This document shows, piece after piece, positions 16,991 through 34,280 of a stretch of 64,000 nucleotides of DNA; position 1 is the stretch's first letter, and every line of letters starts with the position of its first letter. The notes below the pieces were generated by a model. It saw only the letters and a program-made list of their open reading frames with translations, searched no databases and was not told the DNA's origin. The position numbers and the translations under genes are program-made. This stretch comes from a virus, in the IMG/VR virus record IMGVR_UViG_3300032240_001333, positions 17,265-81,264 of that record, one strand, 5' to 3'.

Positions 16991-17614
16991 TTGATAAAAA
17001 ATATAAATAATAAAATTTATATAATTGAAAATTATATTTCTGAAGGTACTTCTAAATTTATAACAGACGTATATAATGAATCACTATATGATTCTCCAAG
17101 CTATCAAATTAAAGGCGGACCATCTTTAAAACCAGATGACGGATATACTTTTCAATGTGGTAAAACAATTGACCAATATAATGGAAATTTAAATCACGAT
17201 GTAGCAGTAGATATATTAACTATGATTTGTACATCAATGACTAAAACAATATCAGATTTTGCTGATAAGCAAATGGATATTAAAACTATGTTTTATGGAC
17301 TAATGCTTCCAGGATCTAAAAATGAACTGCATTCAGATAATTACTTAGAAATAAACAATGAGGATAGTCTTAGACAAAATTCAAAAGATGATTGGTCTGG
17401 ATTACTGTATTTAAATGATTCATATGAGGGTGGACTTTTAGAATTTCCTGAAGAGGAGTTTTCAATAAAACCTAAAATTGGTACATTTATATTTTTTAAA
17501 GGGGATCATAATTTACCCCATAGAGTTTCAGAAGTAACAGGCGGATCTAGAAATGTAATAATATCCTTTTTTTGGCCAAAAGAATACCGTGGTTTAGACA
17601 CTATTTTAGGCTAG
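16991..17614 (+). CDS. 2OG-Fe(II) oxygenase
   Basis: HSD, LYLNDSYEGG, HRV, R. Confidence 0.88.
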   Translation: MIKNINNKIYIIENYISEGTSKFITDVYNESLYDSPSYQIKGGPSLKPDDGYTFQCGKTIDQYNGNLNHDVAVDILTMICTSMTKTISDFADKQMDIKTMFYGLMLPGSKNELHSDNYLEINNEDSLRQNSKDDWSGLLYLNDSYEGGLLEFPEEEFSIKPKIGTFIFFKGDHNLPHRVSEVTGGSRNVIISFFWPKEYRGLDTILG

Positions 17615-22959: not shown

Positions 22960-23523
22960 TAGCTGATATAAGCCATTAGAAATTCTTTCAGTATGGCTAA
23001 AATATGCTACATATCCTAACTTCCCCCTTCCCTTCCAGAGCTCTTAAAACCCCCTTTAAAGCCCATTTAGAGCCATTTCTATTAGATATCTATGAAAGTA
23101 AATACTATTAATTCATTAGTAAATACTATAGATTTATGATTATATAATTATACATGTATTTGAGCATCCTCCATAACTCCCCATAATGCTCCACATGTCC
23201 CCATGTCTATCAAATGTTCAGGGATTTGTCAACATGTCTCGTAAAAGCATATTTTTGCCCACATGTCAATAGATTTTATATAACAATTTGGCATAAATGT
23301 ATGTTAAATTTGCTATACATTTTGCTATATTTTATATATATTTTAATAGATTCTATATATGTTTTATTATATTATTATACATTCTTATATGATTCTCAGG
23401 GATTTTTAAGTATTCTTCGTAAAGGAGAAATTGTGCCCTTAGCTAATATACAAAAAAGGGACATATATATCCAAGATGTACATATAGTACAAATCGGACA
23501 TACATGTCCCATGTTTGATTATA

Positions 23524-23793
23524 TTATATTATAGGTTCATGTTGTTCTATTACTTCGGCTAGATGACTGGATAACATTAGGGCTTCTGATGTATATCCTT
23601 CCGCCCATGCCGTTTGGAAATTACCCGCCTGTTGTTTAATAACTTCCTTTATCAGTTCCATAAGTCTATCTTGAGTATATAGCGGTAGGTTATTAACAAT
23701 AATACTAGCGCAAATCATTGGATTAAACCAATGATTATCTAATACTACTTGTAGTTGGTCTACGATTTTTTCTTCATCTGTTTTCTTTGCCAT
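23524..23793 (-). CDS. Hypothetical early protein
   Basis: GAGGCGGA just before the ATG. Confidence 0.7.
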   Translation of the reverse strand: MAKKTDEEKIVDQLQVVLDNHWFNPMICASIIVNNLPLYTQDRLMELIKEVIKQQAGNFQTAWAEGYTSEALMLSSHLAEVIEQHEPII

Positions 23794-23886
23794 GTCCGCC
23801 TCTTTCTAGTCTTTGGATTATATCAAAAAAGTTGGGAAAGGTCAATAGTGATATGCGACTATCAACCCCTCCCAATGTTAGATAGT

Positions 23887-24027
23887 TTACTTGGTCTTAA
23901 CCTCTGCAGTAAACTTGATGCCGTTCTTCTCGGCCTCTGATAGAGCTTGCTTGGCTGCTCCTGAGAAGCGACCACGCTTGCCGACAGTAATGCCCTTGCT
24001 TACTAGATATTCACGTTTTGTAGCCAT
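23887..24027 (-). CDS. Stand-alone Lsr2-like DNA-binding domain (46 aa, not in ORF track)
   Basis: MATKREYLVSKGITVGKRGRFSGAAKQALSEAEKNGIKFTAEVKTK; RGR motif; GAGGA RBS. Confidence 0.72.
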   Translation of the reverse strand: MATKREYLVSKGITVGKRGRFSGAAKQALSEAEKNGIKFTAEVKTK

Positions 24028-24029
24028 TT

Positions 24030-24461
24030 TTATTCCTCTTCTAATATAACAGGTTCCGCCTTGAAACCTGGTTCTTGCGTTCCATATTCAGTTGTATTAT
24101 CTGACTCCTCGTCAGAATCTTCATCCAGCCATCCGTCGTCTTCGAGGGCGGCAAGGAAATCATTATCAATCATCCAATCAAGAATTGCCTCATCAACAGC
24201 CTCCGCACCATATTCAAGGGTAAAATCACTTGGCGGGTTGGCCCAGAGTTTATCCCAGATAACATCTAGAGTAGTATTAGCAGTTATTACAAAGTCATTG
24301 CCAAAATCATCTTGAGAATAATTATTAAACTTATCTTTAATTACATCCCATACCCATAGCCATACTAATGACATTGGAACATCCATGCCATTTAAAGTAT
24401 CGACAATTTGGTCCAATTGCATTCTAATCTTGACACCACGGTCATATTGTGCATTATCCAC
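24030..24461 (-). CDS. Highly acidic hypothetical protein
   Basis: Asp/Glu-rich 143-aa ORF. Confidence 0.7.
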   Translation of the reverse strand: MDNAQYDRGVKIRMQLDQIVDTLNGMDVPMSLVWLWVWDVIKDKFNNYSQDDFGNDFVITANTTLDVIWDKLWANPPSDFTLEYGAEAVDEAILDWMIDNDFLAALEDDGWLDEDSDEESDNTTEYGTQEPGFKAEPVILEEE

Positions 24462-24916
24462 GCTGTTTTGCCCTTTCGTTGATAGCGAATGCTAAATTAT
24501 ACGTCATAACATACAAATCTGTCAATGCGTCCATACGTCCTTCAAAATAAAATTTATCTGCAATATTATCAGAATCACCTATTTCCGATAGTTTTGTTTC
24601 ACATTCATACATCCAATTTTTTAATTCACCATGCATGATGTTAGTACCTGTTTCTCCCAGGTCAATCAGCTTTTGAAGATGTGGGCTTAATTCATCAGAC
24701 ATTATCATTTGCTACCTCCAATAAATGTTCTATGGCAAATATCTGTCCTTGTATATAATGCCAATCAATTGAATCATCTTTTAAAGATGTCTTTTCAATT
24801 AGTTCTTTATCTTGTTCAAGACTTATTAAATGAAGTTTCATATATTCGATTAAATTAGTCATGGATATCTTTCTGTCCAGTTTCTCTATTATGAATTGCA
24901 TATACTCCGCAATCAC
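24454..24916 (-). CDS. Two small coupled hypothetical ORFs
   Basis: 24454-24708 and 24695-about 24861; similar YxxG(R/Q)xxA motif. Confidence 0.6.
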
Positions 24917-25130
24917 AATTAAAGTATCCTGGTGTGTCGGTGCATTCCCATTTATGACTATGCATGATCGAAATACCCCTCAGCCCATAGTCCTTGCAAG
25001 AAACTGTTTGCCATTTCTAAATCGCTTCTAAGTTCTGTCTTATCCATTAAATTGGACGGGGTCCTAAGATAAAAAAGTTTTGCGTCATGTATAGCATTAA
25101 TCATTCTATTTAAATCATTTTCAGTATAAC

Positions 25131-25340
25131 CTAGCATAAGAAGTACTCATCCCCTTCTTTATATCCATAATATTCATTATAAGATTGTCTTACATTATCA
25201 GGAGCAAATTCCATAAATTTAAATTCAGCATATTCTTCGCCTTCATCTAAATTAGAATTATTCCAGTCTTCAAACAATTGCTCTTTTATATCATGCTGGA
25301 TAGAATCTATTAGCATTTCATTCATATCATCTGTAAACAT
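25131..25340 (-). CDS. Acidic hypothetical early protein
   Basis: AACGAAAGG RBS and TGTCAG promoter upstream. Confidence 0.75.
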   Translation of the reverse strand: MFTDDMNEMLIDSIQHDIKEQLFEDWNNSNLDEGEEYAEFKFMEFAPDNVRQSYNEYYGYKEGDEYFLC

Positions 25341-25496
25341 TTTTCCCCTTTCGTTATGGCTTAATTATATATCAGACCACTGACATTTGTAAATAGAATA
25401 TTGGTGTGTTTCACACCACATTGTCCAAAGATTGAGATTTCCAGGAAATTTACTTGACATCCGTAAAACAGATATGATACCCTCACCAGCTGCGGG

Positions 25497-25631
25497 AAAT
25501 AAGAAACCCCCCAGCCGAGACTACTGGGGGATTAAGAGAGTGGCTGCTAGGACCTCAACGAAAGGAAAAGCCTGCTTTACTTAGCAACTAGATAAGTTGC
25601 ACCACTCATATGAATAGGCACCCTGGGCCTA
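25497..25631 (-). ncRNA. Candidate small RNA antisense to the shared early-gene RBS
   Basis: TGCTATAAT promoter (25637-25645), UUUUCCUUUCGUUG segment, CCCCCAG/CTGGGGG terminator. Confidence 0.65.
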
Positions 25632-25647
25632 ATCAAATTATAGCATA

Positions 25648-26052
25648 TTAGACGAGCAGTCTCTCCAATGCATACTTCTCACAGAATGATGTGAGATCCA
25701 TGGTAAAGATTGCTTCATTCTTCATACCTAAAACTTTATTCTCTAAGTTGCGATGATCATCTTGCTCATGCAATGAGAACGTTTGGTCCTTCCAATTAAT
25801 AACAGCGATCTTGTGCTCATTGTCACCAATTGAATTTACCTGCAGACCCCAGCCTGTTTCCATGTTCCATTGGTCGCCGATCAAATGACTAATAGCAATA
25901 CGTGTTGCATATGATTCGTCATTCCATCGAGGACGTGCTGCAATAACAGCATCCGCCAATTTACCTAACATGTTATATCCAGCCCAGTGTCCGTATAAGC
26001 AGATTGTATCTCCTGCTCCATCAACGAATACGTAGTTTGCTCTATCTCCCAT
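25648..26052 (-). CDS. Hypothetical phage protein
   Basis: MGDRA...LYGHWAG...YATRI ORF. Confidence 0.75.
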   Translation of the reverse strand: MGDRANYVFVDGAGDTICLYGHWAGYNMLGKLADAVIAARPRWNDESYATRIAISHLIGDQWNMETGWGLQVNSIGDNEHKIAVINWKDQTFSLHEQDDHRNLENKVLGMKNEAIFTMDLTSFCEKYALERLLV

Positions 26053-26243
26053 TATATTTCCGCCTTTTCTAGTTGAGGTGTTTCTTCCGTTTTGTTTAAT
26101 TCTATCATTTCATAGGCCCATTTGTCTAGAGCCTCTGAATTACTATTTCGGTGATGTCCGCAAAATGCCAGCTCACCTGATGTGCTACGGGCTAACCATT
26201 TAGCCTGAGCTGAGCATGAATCACATTTGATCCATTCGCTCAT
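26052..26243 (-). CDS. Small actinobacterial-type Zn-binding protein
   Basis: CDxCxAQA...GELxFCGHH. Confidence 0.7.
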   Translation of the reverse strand: MSEWIKCDSCSAQAKWLARSTSGELAFCGHHRNSNSEALDKWAYEMIELNKTEETPQLEKAEI

Positions 26244-26378
26244 ATCTTGTTTTCCTCTATCATATCTGATAGGCGGTCAAGGAGCCAAGAGTCGATATCC
26301 GCTAAGTCTATCTCTCTTAACTTCTCAATGATCTCCTCACGAGCAAATTTATACCCGTCATCAAAACCATCTTTATAC

Positions 26379-26612
26379 TCAGACATTTTCTCCCCTAACA
26401 TATGCTAATTCATTCTCAGCATAATCTTTTTCATTTAATACTGTAAGATTGTGAGTTTGAATTAACTTGCTCACCTTCTCAATATTACCTGTTCCGATCT
26501 CGAATGTCAAGGACTTACGGTCATGAGAATCAGGATCAAGCCCCATGACCTCCGCATCCCATGAGGCTCTATGGAAAGCAACATTACTATTTGCTTTTAA
26601 TTTATAAAACAT
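26379..26612 (-). CDS. Hypothetical protein
   Basis: Coupled ORF. Confidence 0.6.
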   Translation of the reverse strand: MFYKLKANSNVAFHRASWDAEVMGLDPDSHDRKSLTFEIGTGNIEKVSKLIQTHNLTVLNEKDYAENELAYVRGENV

Positions 26613-27064
26613 TAGTTCCAATCCACATCTGTGTCTTCAATTGACCAATCATTTACTTCAACATCGCTTCCATATGATGTTAAAGTAAGTTCATCTCCAA
26701 GTTTGTAATGAGCGTCAAAGTTATCAACCTCATCAAGTGGAACCTGAACAGTTACTTCAAAATTAATAGTTCCAGTTACTGTAACTGTCTTTGATAATTC
26801 AAATCCAAACAGTTCTGCTATTTGTTGAAGCGCTTCTTCCTTTGTATAATTAGGATTATATAATTCAACTAGAAGTTCTTCTAACTCATTAACCTTTGAT
26901 TTAAGGCTATGATAGTTATCATTAGCACGACGACCTTGATCTAAGGCCCATTCTAAATCAACTACCTTATCGGTAATATATTCAGGTGCTTCAGGTGCTG
27001 CGTAGGTTCCTGCAATCTTCTTGTAAGTCACAAGTAGATTAGGATTGTATGTTTCTATTGACAT
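26612..27064 (-). CDS. Hypothetical protein
   Basis: AACGAAAGGAAA RBS; promoter embedded in the upstream CDS. Confidence 0.75.
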   Translation of the reverse strand: MSIETYNPNLLVTYKKIAGTYAAPEAPEYITDKVVDLEWALDQGRRANDNYHSLKSKVNELEELLVELYNPNYTKEEALQQIAELFGFELSKTVTVTGTINFEVTVQVPLDEVDNFDAHYKLGDELTLTSYGSDVEVNDWSIEDTDVDWN

Positions 27065-27822
27065 TAGTTTCCTTTCGTTGTAGTAGTGGTTAAGTATACA
27101 TTATGGGTCTGACATTCCGCCATAGCATCTTCATCCTGCCAAGAGCCTTGATTACATTCTGAGCAGAATTCTCCGCATCCGTCTTCACAATAATCTATTG
27201 TGTTAAAAGATTGGCAGGCATAACATCTGTTTTCATATTCTAAGTTTTCATTAACTTCACCACGAACAATCTCGTATTCACCACCCCAACCAGTCTCTTC
27301 TTCAAATTCAAGGGTTAATAGAGAGTTTGGAACAAGATTGCTAAGTTTAGTTAATATAGTAACGGCAGGTGACCAAGCAGTATTATATTTATAGATAACC
27401 CAGTTGTCTTCACCCTCTGATGTATATTCAAGTAATTCAGTATCAGGATATTCATCTTTGTCTGCTACGGCAACATCCCATTTTGTTCCCCAGTTAGTTG
27501 TATTCCAGTTATACCAATCTTTCTGAGTTTTAGCATGCTCCATTTCTTTATCAAACCAATCAGGTTGATTTGTAGAAATTCCAAGTCGTGCAGGTTGTTG
27601 AACATATTCTTGCATTGTAATACCATCTTGTAATGGAGAATGTATATTCCAAAATGCAAAGACAGGATTAGAGTAAGTAGATTCAGTTACTTCCATTTTA
27701 TTAGTTTCCATGTTCCAACTATCGTGCCATACCATAAATGGCTCGTTAAGTTTATCTTTGATAAAATCTATCTCAGACTTTGGTCCTTGGATTGTTAATG
27801 TGTTATACACCCAGTTAGGCAT
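27064..27822 (-). CDS. DUF1281/YubB-like protein
   Basis: MPNW.YN, WYNWN..NWGTKWD, TAWSP. Confidence 0.78.
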   Translation of the reverse strand: MPNWVYNTLTIQGPKSEIDFIKDKLNEPFMVWHDSWNMETNKMEVTESTYSNPVFAFWNIHSPLQDGITMQEYVQQPARLGISTNQPDWFDKEMEHAKTQKDWYNWNTTNWGTKWDVAVADKDEYPDTELLEYTSEGEDNWVIYKYNTAWSPAVTILTKLSNLVPNSLLTLEFEEETGWGGEYEIVRGEVNENLEYENRCYACQSFNTIDYCEDGCGEFCSECNQGSWQDEDAMAECQTHNVYLTTTTTKGN

Positions 27823-27946
27823 ATTATTCCTTTCGTTGATTAGCGCAATTGTATCAGAGTCGACTGACATTATCAAGGATTTCCAGGAATTTTATTGATG
27901 TTCTCATAAAAGCGAAAAAAGGCCCTTAGCTATTGGGGGCAGCTTG

Positions 27947-28020
27947 CGATCCCAACGGGACTTGAACCCGTAGCCTTTACCGTGACAGGGTAACGATCTA
28001 ACCAATTGATCTATGGGACC
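27947..28020 (-). tRNA. tRNA-Asp(GTC)
   Basis: Reverse-strand cloverleaf GGTCCCA...TTACC-CTGTCAC-GGTAA...GGTTCAAGTCC...TGGGATCG. Confidence 0.92.
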
Positions 28021-28051
28021 TAGATGTGGGGCCCTTTCGGGCCCCATTTAT

Positions 28052-29059
28052 TTATACTAGTTGCAGATTATTTTGTACAACTTTTAACAAGCGATTTTTT
28101 TCTGCGTTAATTACAGGATTGAAACCACTTGCAGATGCTAAAAGAGTTTCAGCATTTCCACGGCGATGCCAATCTAAACGCTCAGTTAAAGCGTTAAATG
28201 CTCCCCATGCATTACCAGCGATCATGTGATTAAATTCGCCAGTGTAGATATCATTAATGAGATCAACTTTCGTTTCCCATTTTTTAATTGCGCCCTTAGT
28301 ATCTTTTGTAGGCTTAGGGTACGCAGCCAAAATAATATCGTTAAATTGTTGAGCGGTGATTTCTTTTTGAATCATCTGCTTAGCCATGATATCGAATTTA
28401 TCCATGTATGAATTCGCAAGACCTAAAGCCTCACGAGCCACACGCACACGACCTTCAGCAGATTGTGTATGACGGATTTTGAAAGATTGCTTAACGCCAT
28501 CTTTCTTTTTGATATTGCCCATCGCAAGATTTAGCGTGTTAGCGCATACAACACGAACGGGTGTTATAGATGCTTGAATAGCAATTGAGCCATCATGTGA
28601 TGTATTAATAAGCAGATAAGTTTTAACAACATCTGCCACGCCACTAGGATCAAGAACGGTTTCACGCTCTAATGCTAATGAGCCGAATACAACACGACCG
28701 CCACGAATTGAGCCAGCAGTCTCCCAACGTCCACCGCCATCAAGAATATTATCGCCGAATGCGAATAATTCTTCATTTTGCAATGGTACATAACGCTCAC
28801 CGACAATTCCTAAAACATCGGTTTGTGTTTTGTCCGTAGGATTAGTACGCACAACATATTGATAGTTTTTATCGCTTGTTAATGTAGATGGAATTTCTAA
28901 TTCCTCTAAGCGAACATTCCAACCATTAAGGTTAGCGGTTTCTAGCATTTCGCTAGTTGTTTTTTCTTCTGTGAACACGGTACCTAAACCATGCCACGCA
29001 GGTTCACGAAATGATGCAAAAGAAGTTTTGCCATTTTGTGATTCTAGTTCATGAGCCAT
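28052..29059 (-). CDS. DUF932 family phage/plasmid protein
   Basis: MAHE..., PAWHGLG, ETAGSIRGG, SHDGS, TPVRVVCANTL, IRHT. Confidence 0.9.
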   Translation of the reverse strand: MAHELESQNGKTSFASFREPAWHGLGTVFTEEKTTSEMLETANLNGWNVRLEELEIPSTLTSDKNYQYVVRTNPTDKTQTDVLGIVGERYVPLQNEELFAFGDNILDGGGRWETAGSIRGGRVVFGSLALERETVLDPSGVADVVKTYLLINTSHDGSIAIQASITPVRVVCANTLNLAMGNIKKKDGVKQSFKIRHTQSAEGRVRVAREALGLANSYMDKFDIMAKQMIQKEITAQQFNDIILAAYPKPTKDTKGAIKKWETKVDLINDIYTGEFNHMIAGNAWGAFNALTERLDWHRRGNAETLLASASGFNPVINAEKNRLLKVVQNNLQLV

Positions 29060-29196
29060 TTATTTTCCTTTCGTTTAATGTAGCGTTATTCTAGCATACA
29101 TGACTGACATTTGGCAATATCCTATCCGACACGCCAGGGATTTTAAAAGCTTGACTTAAAGCAGAAAATGCCCCCACAGTATCTGGGGGCTTTTAA

Positions 29197-29415
29197 TTAA
29201 GAAATGACTAACGATTTAAAATCGGTTGGAAAAAACATTGCCAGAATCTTTTTCTTTTCAACATTGTCATATACATATGCTTTGACATTGCCCTGGAACT
29301 TATTTAGATTTTTTCTAACAACTTTATTTAGCGCTTCACGATTTAATATATCATTAAAATGTAAAGTTAAATCATGAGCTTTGTTAGCATCATAGATTTC
29401 TACACGATACCGCAT
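29197..29415 (-). CDS. Hypothetical protein
   Basis: AAAGGA RBS. Confidence 0.65.
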   Translation of the reverse strand: MRYRVEIYDANKAHDLTLHFNDILNREALNKVVRKNLNKFQGNVKAYVYDNVEKKKILAMFFPTDFKSLVIS

Positions 29416-29487
29416 TTGTTTCCTTTTGTAGTAGGGAGAACTATTTTAACATAGGGGGCTAGATTTTGTCTAGCCCCCATTTGTTTA

Positions 29488-29910
29488 TTATAGATATTGA
29501 GCGATAGCGTTGTAAGTAGAAGTTGAAACTACTTCCTCATCTGTCATTTTCAGAATACGGATAGCGTTTTCAATTTCATCTTTTGTAGCCTTGTAAGTAT
29601 GAACATGGAAGGTTTCAAAATCACGCTCAGGTTGCTTAGGAAAATCCTTCTCGTCAATTTTTAAGTCAAAATCAACATTGAGTTGGTTATTCCATGAACG
29701 ATAATTTGTGCGGACATTTTCCGCTTTTGAGATATTATCAAGAGCAAACTTAACAATATCTTTATTCCACTTAGCCAAAGTCTTTTGATACTTTGCCTCG
29801 TTCTCGTCTTGTTTCTTATAGTTAGTTTCAATTTCTGCTAACTTAGTTTCTAAAGCCTTGATAACTTTAGGTGTAGCGATTTTAACGCTAATTGCTTTTT
29901 GTCTTGACAT
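29488..29910 (-). CDS. Hypothetical coiled-coil protein
   Basis: Conserved promoter and RBS upstream. Confidence 0.8.
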   Translation of the reverse strand: MSRQKAISVKIATPKVIKALETKLAEIETNYKKQDENEAKYQKTLAKWNKDIVKFALDNISKAENVRTNYRSWNNQLNVDFDLKIDEKDFPKQPERDFETFHVHTYKATKDEIENAIRILKMTDEEVVSTSTYNAIAQYL

Positions 29911-29977
29911 GTATTTCCTTTCGTTAGGTTGGGTTTATTATAGCGGACACCACCGACAAGCGGTGTCCGCATATTAC

Positions 29978-30121
29978 TTAGTTTAGAACTACTGAAGTCC
30001 AGCGTTCTTTGCCATTTACATCTAGCAAGATACGAGCCACTCCGCTTGGGTGATTATCAACGGCTTTGATAATTCCAGTAATACCACTTGTAGTGGTTGT
30101 GTATAGTTGTCCGATTTCCAT
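29978..30121 (-). CDS. Small hypothetical protein
   Basis: Start reassigned using the RBS motif. Confidence 0.7.
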   Translation of the reverse strand: MEIGQLYTTTTSGITGIIKAVDNHPSGVARILLDVNGKERWTSVVLN

Positions 30122-30172
30122 TTTTGTTTCCTTTCGTTTATGGGTTGTTATTATAGCACCTGCCACCGACAA

Positions 30173-30442
30173 TTAGTAATCGGTTTCAGGTAGCCACGCT
30201 TCTAGGTGGTGAGCCTCGATAATTGCTAAGGCAGGAGCCTTATCTCTGCCCCTATATGACACGCCTTGAGGCATATCTATCAGGCGATCATAGTCCTCAT
30301 CATAGTACGCATCTATGGCATCAATACATGGTTGTACCATTGATAGCGGAACGGGTGGATAGTGATTACCTTGTAAGTGATAACCAATAGCCATTTCTAA
30401 GTCTAAGTTTTCTGCTAAGTCTATTGCTGTATTTAATCCCAT
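30173..30442 (-). CDS. Hypothetical phage protein
   Basis: HLQGNHYPPVP...EAHHLEAW. Confidence 0.75.
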   Translation of the reverse strand: MGLNTAIDLAENLDLEMAIGYHLQGNHYPPVPLSMVQPCIDAIDAYYDEDYDRLIDMPQGVSYRGRDKAPALAIIEAHHLEAWLPETDY

Positions 30443-30718
30443 TTATTCATTCTCCTCTAATATAGTTTCGGATAAGTTTTCTATTTCGTTAATACTATCC
30501 GTCATCTCTTTCATCTCGGTTTCGGATAGTAATACTTTAGTAGTTAGGTCTGCTGTTTTACTAGCAAGACTAGCAGAATAAAGATAAATTAACTTTGCGA
30601 AAGTTTTATCATCTATTTCATTTCTGCGTTCCATTAAGTCCCCTGCTAAGGCTGTAATATCATCATTAAATACTGCTTCCTTAGTTGCTTCTGATATTGC
30701 TATGGCTGTTGCTAACAT
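30443..30718 (-). CDS. Hypothetical protein
   Basis: Conserved promoter and RBS. Confidence 0.75.
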   Translation of the reverse strand: MLATAIAISEATKEAVFNDDITALAGDLMERRNEIDDKTFAKLIYLYSASLASKTADLTTKVLLSETEMKEMTDSINEIENLSETILEENE

Positions 30719-30770
30719 ATTTTCCTTTCGTTGGTGATGGGCTGATTATACACCAGCCCACCGACATTTA

Positions 30771-31031
30771 CTAAGCCAGTACTATAAGAGCCTGCGTAGC
30801 AAACTCATTAGCAATATCTAACTTTGCTTGGATTTCATCTCTAGTCATATCGGCAGGGTTACCGACAAACTCAGTAATTGCGCCTTGATTGTAAGTTGCA
30901 AACCTACCAGCAGGCAAGTTTTCTACTTTTGGATAAAACTCACCTTTTGGATCTAATAAAGAGTTAAACTTAACTCCATTAACTTCGAATGGATAAACCA
31001 CCCAATTAGTTGTGTCTAGCATTGTTTTCAT
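30771..31031 (-). CDS. Hypothetical protein
   Basis: Conserved promoter and RBS. Confidence 0.75.
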   Translation of the reverse strand: MKTMLDTTNWVVYPFEVNGVKFNSLLDPKGEFYPKVENLPAGRFATYNQGAITEFVGNPADMTRDEIQAKLDIANEFATQALIVLA

Positions 31032-31301
31032 TTTATTTCCTTTCGTTTAAGTAGTGGAATTGTAGCAGATCTAACTGACATTTTGTTGCGACACGCCGTC
31101 AGCTCGTAAAAATTTTCAGGGTGTTTTATATCACATTCTTAACGACACGCCCGACCCCGCAGTATTTGCGGGCAAAGCCCCCTTTTGTCAAGGGGGACAC
31201 GCTGGTTATTTAATAACACTCTCCACATAATGGATAGTAATATTCGCCATCATCAGTAATAAACTGAGTGGTATCTTGATTGCAAGATGAACATTTATTC
31301 A

Positions 31302-31511
31302 TTATAAATCCCCCATTTCTGCGTCAGCCATGCGTGTATTCATATGATCTGCATCAATATCACGCCAGCCAAAGTAAGCCATTTCTGACATATCATAACA
31401 TTCAGGGCAGACATAATCGTCGCCAAAGATTTCATATTCCTCAATAGTTTCGAAAGTCTGAGTAGCACCACAGATTTCGTACATTAAGCAAGCAACTGTT
31501 AGATTTTCCAT
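31302..31511 (-). CDS. Zn-ribbon acidic protein
   Basis: C....CG...CPEC; conserved promoter and RBS. Confidence 0.72.
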   Translation of the reverse strand: MENLTVACLMYEICGATQTFETIEEYEIFGDDYVCPECYDMSEMAYFGWRDIDADHMNTRMADAEMGDL

Positions 31512-31761
31512 TTTAGTTCACCTTTCGTTAAGTAATGGAATACTAACACATCACACTGACATTTCCAAATCGACACGCCGAAATTTTCAGGGCATTTTTA
31601 TCATGTGTCTTAAATCACAAAACGCCCCCACAGCTTTTGCGGGCTTTTTCTAATCTGTCAAGTCGACACGCCGTTTATGTTTTAATTTTCTTGTGTATTT
31701 TTTTTTATTGCGAACAGGTTGGGCCGCATTGCTGCGGCGTAATTCCTGAATGCGTTTTACT

Positions 31762-32162
31762 TTATTTAGAAGAATATTTTGGCACATGATAACCGCTTGC
31801 TTCATGAAATTTAACAACATCAAAACGCTCATTATCTTTTGCAAACATTTCTGCAAAATCGTGAACAGTTTTAGAAAAAACAGCGGGATGAATTTTATCG
31901 CTGATATATTTTAAAATTTCAGCGGTTGCGATATAGTCTTTACGGGTCATCATTTTGCGGACACCAATCCAATCAAGTTAAAATTTTTAGTATACATTTT
32001 ACCATTAGGCATAGTTAAATTATATCTTGCGTTTTCTACGGCAAAGCCATGATCTTTACATCTAGCAAAAGCCTCAAACGCTTGAAGAGCATCAGAAAAT
32101 TCATGGGTAAATTCTAATTTCCCATCATAGTAAGTAAATAATTTATACATTAGATCACCCAC
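31762..32162 (-). CDS. Two small coupled ORFs (31762-31953, 31950-about 32150)
   Basis: MTRKDY..IA...F..DNERFD..KF motif in the first. Confidence 0.7.
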
Positions 32163-32334
32163 TCATCTAAAACACAATCACAACTTTCAACATCATAATT
32201 TTTTTCATCGCCCCAAAATACAAATCCTGCGCCACCGCATTCTTCACATTCAATTGCGATTATTTCTTTTATATTTCCCATTTAGTTTTCCTTTCGTAGT
32301 TTGTTAATAGAATTATAGCGGATACCGCTGACAC

Positions 32335-32550
32335 CTAGTAGGTGTCAGGGTAAACATCTTCGGGTTTTCCAATCCCGATTACACGATATTTATTACGGAT
32401 CATGCCCGTATCAATTTCGATTAAATAAGCATCAATATATCTGCCAAAAAAAGCAGAATGTTTTTCAGCAGAAACAATTTTTCCGCTGATAGTATCGGAT
32501 GAATAAGTCCTACCGACTAGCAAGTCGGTGTGAGAGTAGATATTAGCCAT
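32335..32550 (-). CDS. Hypothetical protein
   Basis: Conserved promoter and RBS. Confidence 0.72.
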   Translation of the reverse strand: MANIYSHTDLLVGRTYSSDTISGKIVSAEKHSAFFGRYIDAYLIEIDTGMIRNKYRVIGIGKPEDVYPDTY

Positions 32551-32858
32551 AGTTAGTTTTCCTTTCGTTTATGGTGTAATTTTAACATAACCCACTGACA
32601 ATCAGTGGGTTGGCGTTTCCGCCATGATTAGTTTTAATAAACCAATTCGTTGCGATTTGGTTAAATTTAATTTCGCAACAGTTTCGGATTTTATTCCGCC
32701 ATTATTATATTCGAACAAAAGTTCGTTATAGATTTCGCTAAATTCTTTCATTTAGTTTTCCTTTCGTTTAATAGTTTTATTCTAACACCTACCACTGACA
32801 TTTTGCCTATTACTGACCAGTATTTGAGACAGTATTCGTGTGATCATAATCACACGAG

Positions 32859-32933
32859 TTATCCACGACACGCCCGAAGTTTTCCACAGATTTTCAGGGG
32901 TTTTCCACATCTGTGCATAAACCCTGTGGATAA
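32859..32933. promoter_or_regulatory. Cluster of five DnaA-box-like 9-mers
   Basis: TTATCCACG, TTTTCCACA x2, TGTGCATAA, TGTGGATAA. Confidence 0.75.
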
Positions 32934-33705
32934 CGCCCACAAAAAGCTGCGGGCCAATGTCGCCATTGTCAAGGCGACACGCCGTCTATTTCTTGTGAGT
33001 TTCCTCACATACGCATTTGGTATATGCGCCAGCGTTTAACCTGCCACATTTAGGGCAGGTATAGAAACCAGCAGGATTAGTCATTTAACCCACCGCTCTT
33101 TACATCGTAGTAGATAGCGTAGACTAGGGCAGATACTACACCTAGCAACGCTAATTGGATGGCGGTGGTGATTAGTCTATTTAGTGTCATTACTTACGAC
33201 CTCTCCATATTTTAATTCCAGCAATTACTACAACAGATACGATAATTAGTTTCCAATCTAGTGCGACATAGAACCAATCGCTATCTACGCAGAAACCATA
33301 TGAGTTTAATTCAATAGTCATTTATTACTCCGTCCAGTCTAAGGTTAATTCTTGCTCTGCTAATTCATCAAGGCTAATTATATCGGTATCAAAATCGCTA
33401 ACGATATCTTCATCGCCCTCTTGCTTGGCGATAGCCTCTCTCTCGTCCCAATGGCGGTATGCGTCTGCGATATCCGCTTGGATAGTGTCCCATTTAGTCA
33501 TCATATTAGAAACCCCAGCAATCTGAGCAGATAACTACATCGCTCTCATCGTAGAATATAGAGGACATCTCTACATCGCACACCTTACAATTTAAGGTGA
33601 TTAGTGTGTCGTTCATTTTCTTACCTTCTTTCGTTTTTGTTATGGTGAAACCTTATCATACCCCACCGACAAAGCGCAAGCCTTGCCGATGTGATGTTGC
33701 TCACA

Positions 33706-33930
33706 TTAGTAGGCACCATAGGTGCCATCCTTTAGTGATTGGATAGTAGTCAATACATGGTCAATAGCCATCATGACTATCTCTTTATCAGAGCGGTCTT
33801 GATAAGCCCAATGATCCTTATAGTAGACATATGCTTGCTCATATGTCCAGCAATAAGTATCGTGATAATACTTAAGCGTAGGAGATAGCGTTTCATACGC
33901 CTCATTTATTTCTTTTATCATAGTTATCAT
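33706..33930 (-). CDS. Hypothetical protein, first gene of the minus-strand block
   Basis: AACGAAAGGA RBS. Confidence 0.7.
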   Translation of the reverse strand: MITMIKEINEAYETLSPTLKYYHDTYCWTYEQAYVYYKDHWAYQDRSDKEIVMMAIDHVLTTIQSLKDGTYGAY

Positions 33931-33963
33931 ATTTATATCCTTTCGTTGATATATATTGAGCGG

Positions 33964-34005
33964 TTATTTGCTAGGCTCACCTTTCGGATTATTTGCTAGG
34001 CTCAC
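33964..34005. repeat. 17-bp direct repeat x2
   Basis: TTATTTGCTAGGCTCAC at 33964 and 33989. Confidence 0.95.
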
Positions 34006-34280
34006 GCTCTAATTCTTTATTTAATTTATACTATAATCATATAAGAGGGGACTGACATTTTGCAAGTCACAAATCGGACATGTCGGACATTTTGAAAACT
34101 TTTTTTGGAAAATCGTGTGATACTCCTCACATATGGTCGCTCTAAAGGGATAAATCGGACATTTCAAAATGGTGTATCATACAAAATAAAAATATATTAA
34201 CATTTTGTGAAATCTGAAATACTAGTCGACTAGGATTATATGTGTATATATGAGATATATTTTAGTTAACTAAGATATTA

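Follow-up and report, generated by a model that had tools for sequence, protein, structure and literature searches.

Three-box DNA elements at the 3' ends of transcription units in an uncultured actinobacteriophage family

The virus record IMGVR_UViG_3300032240_001333 is an 81,264-bp contig, estimated to be 75% complete, from a phage whose complete relatives measure 110-116 kb. We analyzed the 64,000 nucleotides at positions 17,265 to 81,264 of this record (the window, whose numbering is used throughout), which hold eight copies of an element composed of three conserved boxes. Its distribution links this element to 3' ends of transcription units, all of them within a single block of small genes. 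Boxes and box spacing are kept while the spacers differ, both between the eight paralogous copies and across 80 relatives, and the data support a selected, fixed-geometry DNA signal that is neither a chance motif nor a structured RNA. Among several explanations of its role, we tentatively favor a polar operon boundary.

The majority of the phage genes lie on the plus strand, with canonical TTGACA-N17-TATAAT promoters upstream. The single large minus-strand block, at 23524-34057, comprises ~30 small genes, a tRNA-Asp gene and a unit without an open reading frame (ORF). It contains 14 minus-strand promoters of the form TGTCRG-N10-TAnnnT, which is the layout of PafBC-dependent promoters (PMC8635444).

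Geometry and conservation of the element

Read in the direction of the block genes (window minus strand), the element has the form [gCCCnCA-loop 4-6 nt-]TGnGGG-N12-(T/G)TTACGA-N15-CC(C/T)(T/G)GAAA(tt). The three-box signal is ~55 bases long and occupies the same strand in all copies. Box 1 (TGnGGG) is followed exactly 12 bp on by box 2 ((T/G)TTACGA), and box 3 (CCYKGAAA) lies 15 bp beyond box 2, with centers 18.5 bp apart for boxes 1 and 2 and 23 bp apart for boxes 2 and 3. CCCTGAA and CCTGGAA represent alternative forms of box 3 that occupy the same position, and a few relatives instead carry CCCGAAA or CCCAAAA there. When copies are aligned on GAA, the distance from TTTA to GAA is constant at 22, and the N18/N19 spacer variation previously described is an artefact of alignment. 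A peptide-coding role of the element is ruled out by N18/N19 and stop codons.

A sequence-only reading of the window had listed eight sites of CAGG-N18/19-TAAA-N12-CCC-N8-TG(C/G)GGG, the plus-strand view of the element, and all eight are present where it placed them. The full pattern matches at 25442, 27884, 29135, 31117 and 31588 on the plus strand, with no match on the minus strand or elsewhere in the genome; the site at 32895 is indeed an N14/N9 variant. At 23219 and 23397 the TGSGGG partner is absent and CCC at N12 is still kept. These two had been taken for incomplete copies and instead form a distinct class, that of tandem copies behind the last gene of the block (tail copies), which number one to three, have no hairpin partner and carry an extended box 1, TgtGGGCaaaaTtttcc.

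Relatives were gathered by searching IMG/VR with a 270-aa protein of the block, which returned at least 80 loci of one family at 63-88% identity; these loci are interrelated, so that counts across them are not independent events. A position weight matrix (PWM) trained on the relatives only, with the window excluded, matches seven of the eight copies at 29-53 bits, compared with 0-0.1 matches in Markov-shuffled genomes at thresholds of 14-26 bits, and the motif is thus significant against shuffled sequence. The eighth copy, the variant at 32887..32953, is missed because its spacer is 2 nt longer. All PWM matches share one orientation; the opposite strand and the remainder of the 81-kb genome yield none. 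Spacing is likewise conserved in the relatives, where GGG/CCC stands exactly N12 from box 2 in 240 of 282 copies. Counts of the core TYCAGG-N18/19-TAA[AC] across the 80 IMG/VR loci are 369 for the window orientation and six for the opposite one. In the four complete 110-116-kb relatives, strict matches all fall on one strand within a single ~10-kb stretch (control, 0). The copies examined are intergenic, save for one recurrent, chance-like match inside a conserved gene.

In an exact-pattern scan, over 120 viral contigs contain the element, although chance may account for part of these matches. Among 185,579 species genomes the strict pattern has 29 matches, against ~35 by a rough chance estimate; none is actinobacterial, and three lie on short contigs that resemble mis-binned phage. 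A relaxed pattern of boxes 2 and 3 has 41 matches in 401 Actinomycetia genomes, against ~45 for a reversed-pattern control. A host regulon motif is rejected, since matches in both collections remain at chance or control level. Short contigs (L092, L107 and L083) binned in metagenome-assembled genomes of Paceibacterota, Bacteroidia and Luteolibacter carry one or two exact elements each and are probably mis-binned fragments of this phage group, for which the motif is a precise marker.

Table 1. Copies of the three-box element in the window, with box sequences as read on the plus strand, and small genes missing from element-poor relatives
Feature	Position	Strand	Boxes and hairpin partner	PWM (bits)	Context
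Tail copy 1	23211..23265	+	TGTTCAGG 23215-23222; TCGTAAA 23239-23245; CCCACA 23258-23263; no hairpin partner	41.9	Tail class kept in relatives
Tail copy 2	23389..23460	+	TTCTCAGG 23393-23400; TCGTAAA 23417-23423; CCCTTA 23436-23441; only a long-loop CCC...GGG partner, GGG 23458-23460	42.6
Copy	25434..25496	+	TTTCCAGG 25438-25445; CCGTAAA 25461-25467; CCCTCA 25480-25485; partner TGCGGG 25491-25496	44.9	After ORF-less unit 25497-25645; next PafBC-type promoter 25364-25385, minus strand
Copy	27876..27939	+	TTTCCAGG 27880-27887; TCATAAA 27904-27910; CCCTTA 27923-27928; partner TGGGGG 27934-27939	31.6	After tRNA-Asp 27946-28020 (minus); next promoter 27848-27869, 14 nt away
Copy	29127..29190	+	ACGCCAGG overlapping box CGACACGCC; ACTTAAA 29154-29160; hairpin GCCCCCA-N7-TGGGGGC 29170-29190	28.9	After 72-aa gene 29197-29415; next promoter 29088-29109, drives DUF932 gene
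Copy	31109..31172	+	TTTTCAGG 31113-31120; TCTTAAC 31137-31143; hairpin CCCGCA-N5-TGCGGG 31156-31172	53.0	CGACACGCC in N12 spacer; next promoter 31059-31080
Copy	31580..31643	+	TTTTCAGG 31584-31591; TCTTAAA 31608-31614; hairpin CCCACA-N5-TGCGGG 31627-31643	45.7	CRP-like half-palindrome across box 2; next promoter 31540-31561
Variant copy	32887..32953	+	TTTTCAGG 32891-32898; GCATAAA 32915-32921; CCCACA 32936-32941 (N14); TGCGGG 32948-32953		DnaA-type boxes (TTATCCACA-like) fill both spacers; next promoter 32779-32800, 94 nt away
Five small genes absent from element-poor relatives	29197-29415, 26240-26401, 26052-26243, 25131-25340, 24695-24916	minus			Include a 72-aa basic protein and a DUF7455 zinc-finger protein

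Placement at unit ends and the hairpin of box 1

Following the direction of transcription, the element keeps a fixed position relative to the hairpin upstream and a variable one relative to the promoter downstream. Its box 1 supplies the 3' arm of this hairpin, which is located behind the preceding gene, and copies are also found behind the tRNA gene and the ORF-less unit; the position of the copy at 27876..27939, behind tRNA-Asp, is conserved in the relatives. The distance from element to next promoter in the relatives ranges from 13 to 127 nt, with modes near 14, 24, 53-70 and 105-127 nt, and helical phasing between the two is weak (vector strength 0.39, period 10.5). With promoters abbreviated as P and elements as e, the block follows the order P P e P P e ... 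e e. Its first feature is a promoter, and never an element, in all 21 loci with the block start inside the locus, and in 42 of 51 loci the block closes with one to three elements in tandem. More than half of the promoters have no element, including the first ones of every block.

The sequence-only reading had placed the complete copies just upstream of a TGTCRG promoter. This description is accurate for the six internal copies (14, 25, 26, 36, 55 and 94 nt away); the tail copies have no promoter after them. Because the element is bound to the preceding hairpin while its distance to the promoter varies, a classical activator site at a fixed position, as had been suggested, is unlikely; the absence of elements at first promoters and the promoterless tail copies point the same way. 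Of the proposed site for a multi-subunit complex, what stands is the selected DNA signal of fixed geometry, for which a rigid protein or complex would be the natural reader, and what lacks support as stated is the activator role tied to a promoter. The PafBC-type promoters of the block are sites separate from the element. Promoters without an element belong to a compact type: in cassettes at 29937-29972, 30150-30171, 30745-30766 and 32312-32345, the hairpin of the preceding gene overlaps the next PafBC-type promoter, with the -26 box in the stem or loop and no three-box element.

Inspection of the hairpins reveals that 132 of 240 copies use GGG of box 1 as the 3' arm; most stems measure 5-7 bp, and their stability is modest, at -5 to -13 kcal/mol. 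The hairpin noted earlier between CCC and GGG therefore forms in about half of the relatives' copies and is absent from the tail copies, apart from the long-loop TGTCCC...GGGCA of tail copy 2, which recurs in relatives. Of 82 distinct hairpins, 58 are more stable as sense RNA, against 23 (p = 2e-4), which indicates a role in the sense transcript. The arms show no covariation at their free position (54 Watson-Crick pairs versus 86 mismatches). With regard to a palindromic operator as opposed to a hairpin, this lack of covariation is set against the loop length of 4-6 and the favored sense RNA.

T-tracts are rare on both sides of the hairpins. Following the stem there are on average 2.8 T in 9 nt, and five or more in only 10 of 132 copies; orthologous spacers carry AAAA in some relatives and TTTT in others. 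Lacking T-tracts, the hairpins alone would be poor intrinsic terminators. Two window copies pass a simple terminator scan, namely 29170-29190 (both strands) and 31627-31643 (minus strand). A canonical intrinsic terminator is rejected for most copies, as the G+C hairpin is partly present but the U-tract is not.

No conserved pairing is found among boxes 1-3, for which an alifold consensus of 100 copies yields -0.43 kcal/mol in the sense and 0.0 in the antisense direction, and an Rfam search of the region returns the tRNA as its sole match. A structured RNA, including a nut-type antitermination RNA (boxA plus boxB), is rejected for want of a conserved secondary structure, and a resemblance to lambda boxB (CCCTGAAAA) was dropped because it has no 3' stem. 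An integron attC-type site is likewise rejected, with boxes 1-3 unpaired, tail copies free of an inverted repeat and no integrase family found.

Candidate roles of the element

Given its rigidity and asymmetry, its strand lock, its absence from host genomes and its location at unit ends, the 45-bp array is most simply read as a docking site for a phage-specific protein or complex that would act on transcription there. We tentatively propose that the docked factor forms a polar operon boundary that aids termination or insulates units, a reading that is possible rather than probable. Each unit would end in a G+C hairpin without a U-tract, whose 3' arm is box 1. A phage-specific protein or complex docked on the asymmetric 45-bp array would present a polar barrier to RNA polymerase, and this barrier would help the weak hairpins to end or insulate the unit. 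At the end of the block, two or three tandem copies would separate block transcription from the converging late genes. That a protein binds the element, that this protein is phage-encoded and that its effect is termination or insulation is what we infer.

The nearest precedent is found in the stoperators of cluster A mycobacteriophages such as L5, where repressor sites halt the elongating polymerase in an orientation-dependent manner. Each stoperator is a single box of 13-14 bp; these boxes are distributed genome-wide in a temperate phage and bound by its immunity repressor (gp71 in L5). The element resembles them in its actinobacteriophage setting, its many asymmetric sites in short intergenic gaps and its single orientation to transcription, that is to say, it is asymmetric, intergenic and one-directional as a stoperator-type site is; its proposed action would also be on the elongating polymerase and not at the promoter. 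In contrast to stoperators, it is a three-box array of 45-60 bp, fused to hairpins and restricted to a single block of a phage that appears to be lytic. No repressor or integrase was recognized in the genome.

Several observations weigh against a docked boundary factor. Apart from WhiB, no DNA-binding family is recognizable in the block or the rest of the genome. The predicted structure of the 72-aa basic protein (predicted local distance difference test score 86) matches no known DNA-binding fold. A sub-clade of relatives (L073-L075 and L079) has few or no elements yet carries 7-18 PafBC promoters per locus, and nine of 51 blocks lack a terminal element. The 23 bp between the centers of boxes 2 and 3 give the element a likeness to a two-box promoter at least equal to its likeness to an operator. 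Lastly, the hairpin-less tail copies still keep box 1, so that coupling to a hairpin is not the whole story.

The element-poor sub-clade, represented by four full-length loci, also lacks five small genes (Table 1) that 53-70 of the 80 relatives carry. The link between the missing genes and the missing elements is weak, because the element-poor relatives are one divergent group. A 49-aa protein resembling a helix-turn-helix (HTH) occurs in only six loci. A very basic 46-aa protein with a GKRGRF motif (23887-24027, minus strand) is kept in 59 relatives; it has some likeness to the DNA-binding end of Lsr2 but no Pfam or PDB sequence match.

The strongest rival, unlikely in our estimation, is a phage-specific promoter on the plus strand, antisense to the block, in which TTTCAGGG is the -35-like box, TCGTAAA the -10-like box and CCCnCA the start region. 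Host RNA polymerase redirected by a phage sigma-like factor would start from one such promoter at the 3' end of each unit, and from two or three in tandem behind the last, and convergent transcription would switch the block off. The center distance of boxes 2 and 3 equals that from -35 to -10, and orientation is strict. Placement at unit ends, the tandem tail and the absence of copies before the first promoters fit this promoter as well as they fit an operon boundary. Box 1 is kept in the hairpin-less tail copies as a start-region element would be, and DnaA-type and CRP-like boxes lie inside or beside the boxes, like repressor sites. CGTA-type -10 boxes are known for extracytoplasmic function (ECF) sigma factors; the -35-like box, however, is without the AAC core usual for ECF promoters. 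The hairpin, stabler in sense RNA, would start ~5 nt after the presumed start, and the other plus-strand genes use the canonical promoter. Sigma70_r2 and r4_2 domains are recognized neither in this genome nor in the four complete relatives, although very divergent sigma-like proteins may escape such a search, whose sole match in the relatives is a weak one to a 49-54-aa HTH elsewhere in the genomes. No phage RNA polymerase is found among the large proteins scanned, and no host regulon carries the motif.

A scan for TAnnnT within +/-120 nt reaches at most 17% of 235 copies at any fixed position in either orientation, and a sigma-A promoter is rejected in both orientations for this lack of a fixed TAnnnT. 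The middle promoters of SPO1 recognized by gp28 offer the closest parallel to an antisense promoter, with two 7-8-bp boxes 23 bp apart, strict orientation, phage specificity and several copies per genome. In contrast to SPO1, no sigma gene is found in five genomes, the element would point against the genes, and its third box at a fixed distance has no counterpart. A resemblance to the sigma-28 consensus was dropped with its spacing off by 4, as were resemblances to SigD/SigW-type boxes and to BldD, GlnR and CsoR operators.

More doubtful is an upstream control module of the next PafBC-type promoter, at which a bound factor would increase or decrease initiation, or a second sense promoter that would produce long leaders. 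All six internal window copies have a TGTCRG-N10-TAnnnT promoter within 14-94 nt, and 179 of 282 relatives' copies have a promoter within 400 nt. TGTGA-N6-TCACA and GGCGTGTCG boxes often stand directly after box 3, giving a dense regulatory region, and the distance modes of 14 and 24 nt are one helical turn apart. Box 2 in gene direction, TTTACG, resembles the -35 hexamer TTGACA; the sequence 17 bp downstream is nonetheless CCYKGA, and no -10 hexamer follows box 3. The unfixed promoter distance, the many promoters without an element and tail copies with neither promoter nor gene behind them all speak against control of a promoter. The element shares block and strand with the PafBC-dependent (RecA-NDp, "sigma adaptation") promoters and accompanies a subset of them. 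It is not itself such a promoter, as it has neither the -26 TGTCRGTG nor the -10 TAnnnT 8 nt downstream (PMC8635444).

Improbable, in turn, is a strand-specific DNA-processing site, for nicking, for priming or replication, or for pausing DNA entry, with the tail array as an origin-like or stop region. Localized nicks in one strand with a fixed consensus are known in T5 and phiKMV-type phages, and the element is like them in its fixed consensus, single strand and small number of copies per genome. A conserved non-coding region of 500-600 bp forms the tail, with two or three elements and very AT-rich spacers; several relatives have three TTATCCACA boxes there, and one internal class has DnaA-type boxes in both spacers. 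The phage encodes its own DnaB-type helicase, primase, DNA polymerase and UvsX-type recombinase, with no recognized initiator. Unlike the T5 and phiKMV-type sites, the copies are confined to one 10-kb block instead of spread genome-wide, and no nickase, HNH or HUH gene is recognized. PafBC requires single-stranded DNA as a co-activator (PMC8635444). A highly improbable extension is that nicks or short single-stranded gaps in virion or entering DNA, located beside the PafBC-type promoters, would supply this co-activator to PafBC in cis; if true, the phage itself would provide the trigger of the host's DNA-damage activator, with the tail copies serving in addition as a signal for replication or DNA entry.

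Recombination had also been put forward for this element, and we regard as quite improbable that the repeated cassette serves mainly as homology for shuffling small early genes between related phages, a role proposed for cassettes of promoter and stem-loop in T4. Conserved regulatory islands at 31036-31162 and 31575-31681 are flanked by genes unrelated in the closest relatives, and homology with relatives breaks at 31161-31166, within the copy at 31109..31172. Metagenomic contigs from freshwater and wastewater runs join 31161/31162 to 31656, 31674 and 32965/32966, and 31588 back to 31137; they represent relatives without the cassettes between two element copies, or with chimeric elements. These contigs were aligned at 85% likeness and may mix strains. 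Two runs, represented by contigs, bear an RNA-Seq label but are probably DNA. The joints (31161-32966) suggest that strains differ by whole cassettes between elements, and exchange between element copies probably occurs. Besides its UvsX-type recombinase, the phage encodes a Cas4-type exonuclease.

The expectation that gene-content breakpoints map to elements does not hold, as breakpoints across the 80 loci peak at gene starts and promoters (57 loci at 25340, 51 at 27106, 50 at 31681 and 39 at 29934) and only 10-23 loci break at elements. Three elements lie inside long collinear stretches without a break, and discrete boxes under selection with free spacers are the opposite of what homology-driven exchange needs. 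What remains of cassette recombination are some breaks and joints inside or at the edge of copies in the variable upstream part of the block, with no preference for elements. From these patterns we regard recombination as a by-product of the repeats rather than a selected function. The promoter early stem-loop (PeSL) cassettes of T4-type phages, which consist of a terminator-like hairpin and a standard sigma-70 early promoter, are comparable in that a stem-loop followed by regulatory sequence lies between small early genes in one orientation, with islands between variable genes and some exchange points at cassettes. They differ in that here the promoter is separate and at variable distance, the boxes are no promoter, and breakpoints are not enriched at the element.

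Least probable is an RNA-level signal in the sense transcript, read by an RNase or RNA-binding protein, such that read-through RNA would be cleaved and a hairpin would remain to protect the 3' end: sense orientation, unit-end placement, hairpins stabler as sense RNA and the missing U-tracts would fit, but the absence of conserved pairing, of an Rfam match and of covariation, the hairpin-less tail copies and an exact 12-/22-nt spacing of unpaired boxes, unusual for RNA recognition, argue against it.

Accessory boxes, phage context and implications

Further boxes are found in and around the element. DnaA-type TTATCCACA fills both spacers in the class of the copy at 32895, whose counterparts in relatives have the regular N12; in the window, DnaA-type boxes lie within 32859-32933. 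A second box, GGCGTGTCG, sits in the N12 spacer in the class of the copy at 31117, and a CRP-like half-palindrome crosses box 2 in that of the copy at 31588. The gap between element and promoter is filled with CRP-like, GGCGTGTCG and other boxes. Seven GGCGTGTCG copies (29127-29135, 31089-31097, 31143-31151, 31571-31579, 31664-31672, 32866-32874 and 32975-32983, minus strand) all lie on the gene strand, beside or within elements; relatives have 342 in the same orientation versus 52 in the other, with up to three in tandem. The GACAC within this box is presumably the WhiA motif of Streptomyces. In several positional classes, box 3 is followed after 3-5 nt by a CRP/GlxR-type palindrome, TGTGA-N6-TCACA; in the window, one lies at 32838-32858.

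The block meets the converging plus-strand genes in a non-coding zone at 22960-23530, an architecture kept in relatives. Near 23100-23140 the zone contains two copies of a direct repeat, AGTAAATACTAT; a long hairpin lies near 23040-23075, and catgtggagcattatgggg and gctcaa(t/a)tacatgtata are stretches conserved within the zone. In the tail regions of L047, L063 and L078, three DnaA-type boxes directly precede the tail elements, and very AT-rich DNA follows these elements, a sequence arrangement that looks like an origin-like layout.

The phage further encodes a terminase and a WhiB protein. Its thioredoxin homologues are mostly actinobacterial, and a host search through WhiB and thioredoxin returned general actinobacterial matches only, or none. 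A nucleotide search of GenBank phages with the region matched the tRNA alone, and in the literature we found no paper that ties RecA-NDp promoters or a three-box element to phages. The DUF932 protein of the block (335 aa, 28052-29059, minus strand) has its best phage matches, at ~53% identity, in 130-kb Streptomyces phages, at a distance of 1.3-2.6 kb from the left end; they occur at two places per record, which suggests a terminal-repeat location of the gene in those phages.

The phages described here are uncultured freshwater actinobacteriophages that are abundant in lake metagenomes, and the family stands out for one gene block driven by host PafBC-type promoters. The presence of a second conserved signal at unit ends indicates that this block is built of modules, each comprising a promoter, small genes, a hairpin and the three-box element. 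Terminators without U-tracts are a long-standing puzzle in Actinobacteria. Should the element act as a polar barrier or as an antisense promoter, in either case read by a phage factor, it would reveal a regulator not yet known together with a new way of timing or insulating phage genes in Actinobacteria, and the element itself offers a 60-bp bait for finding the protein that reads the motif.

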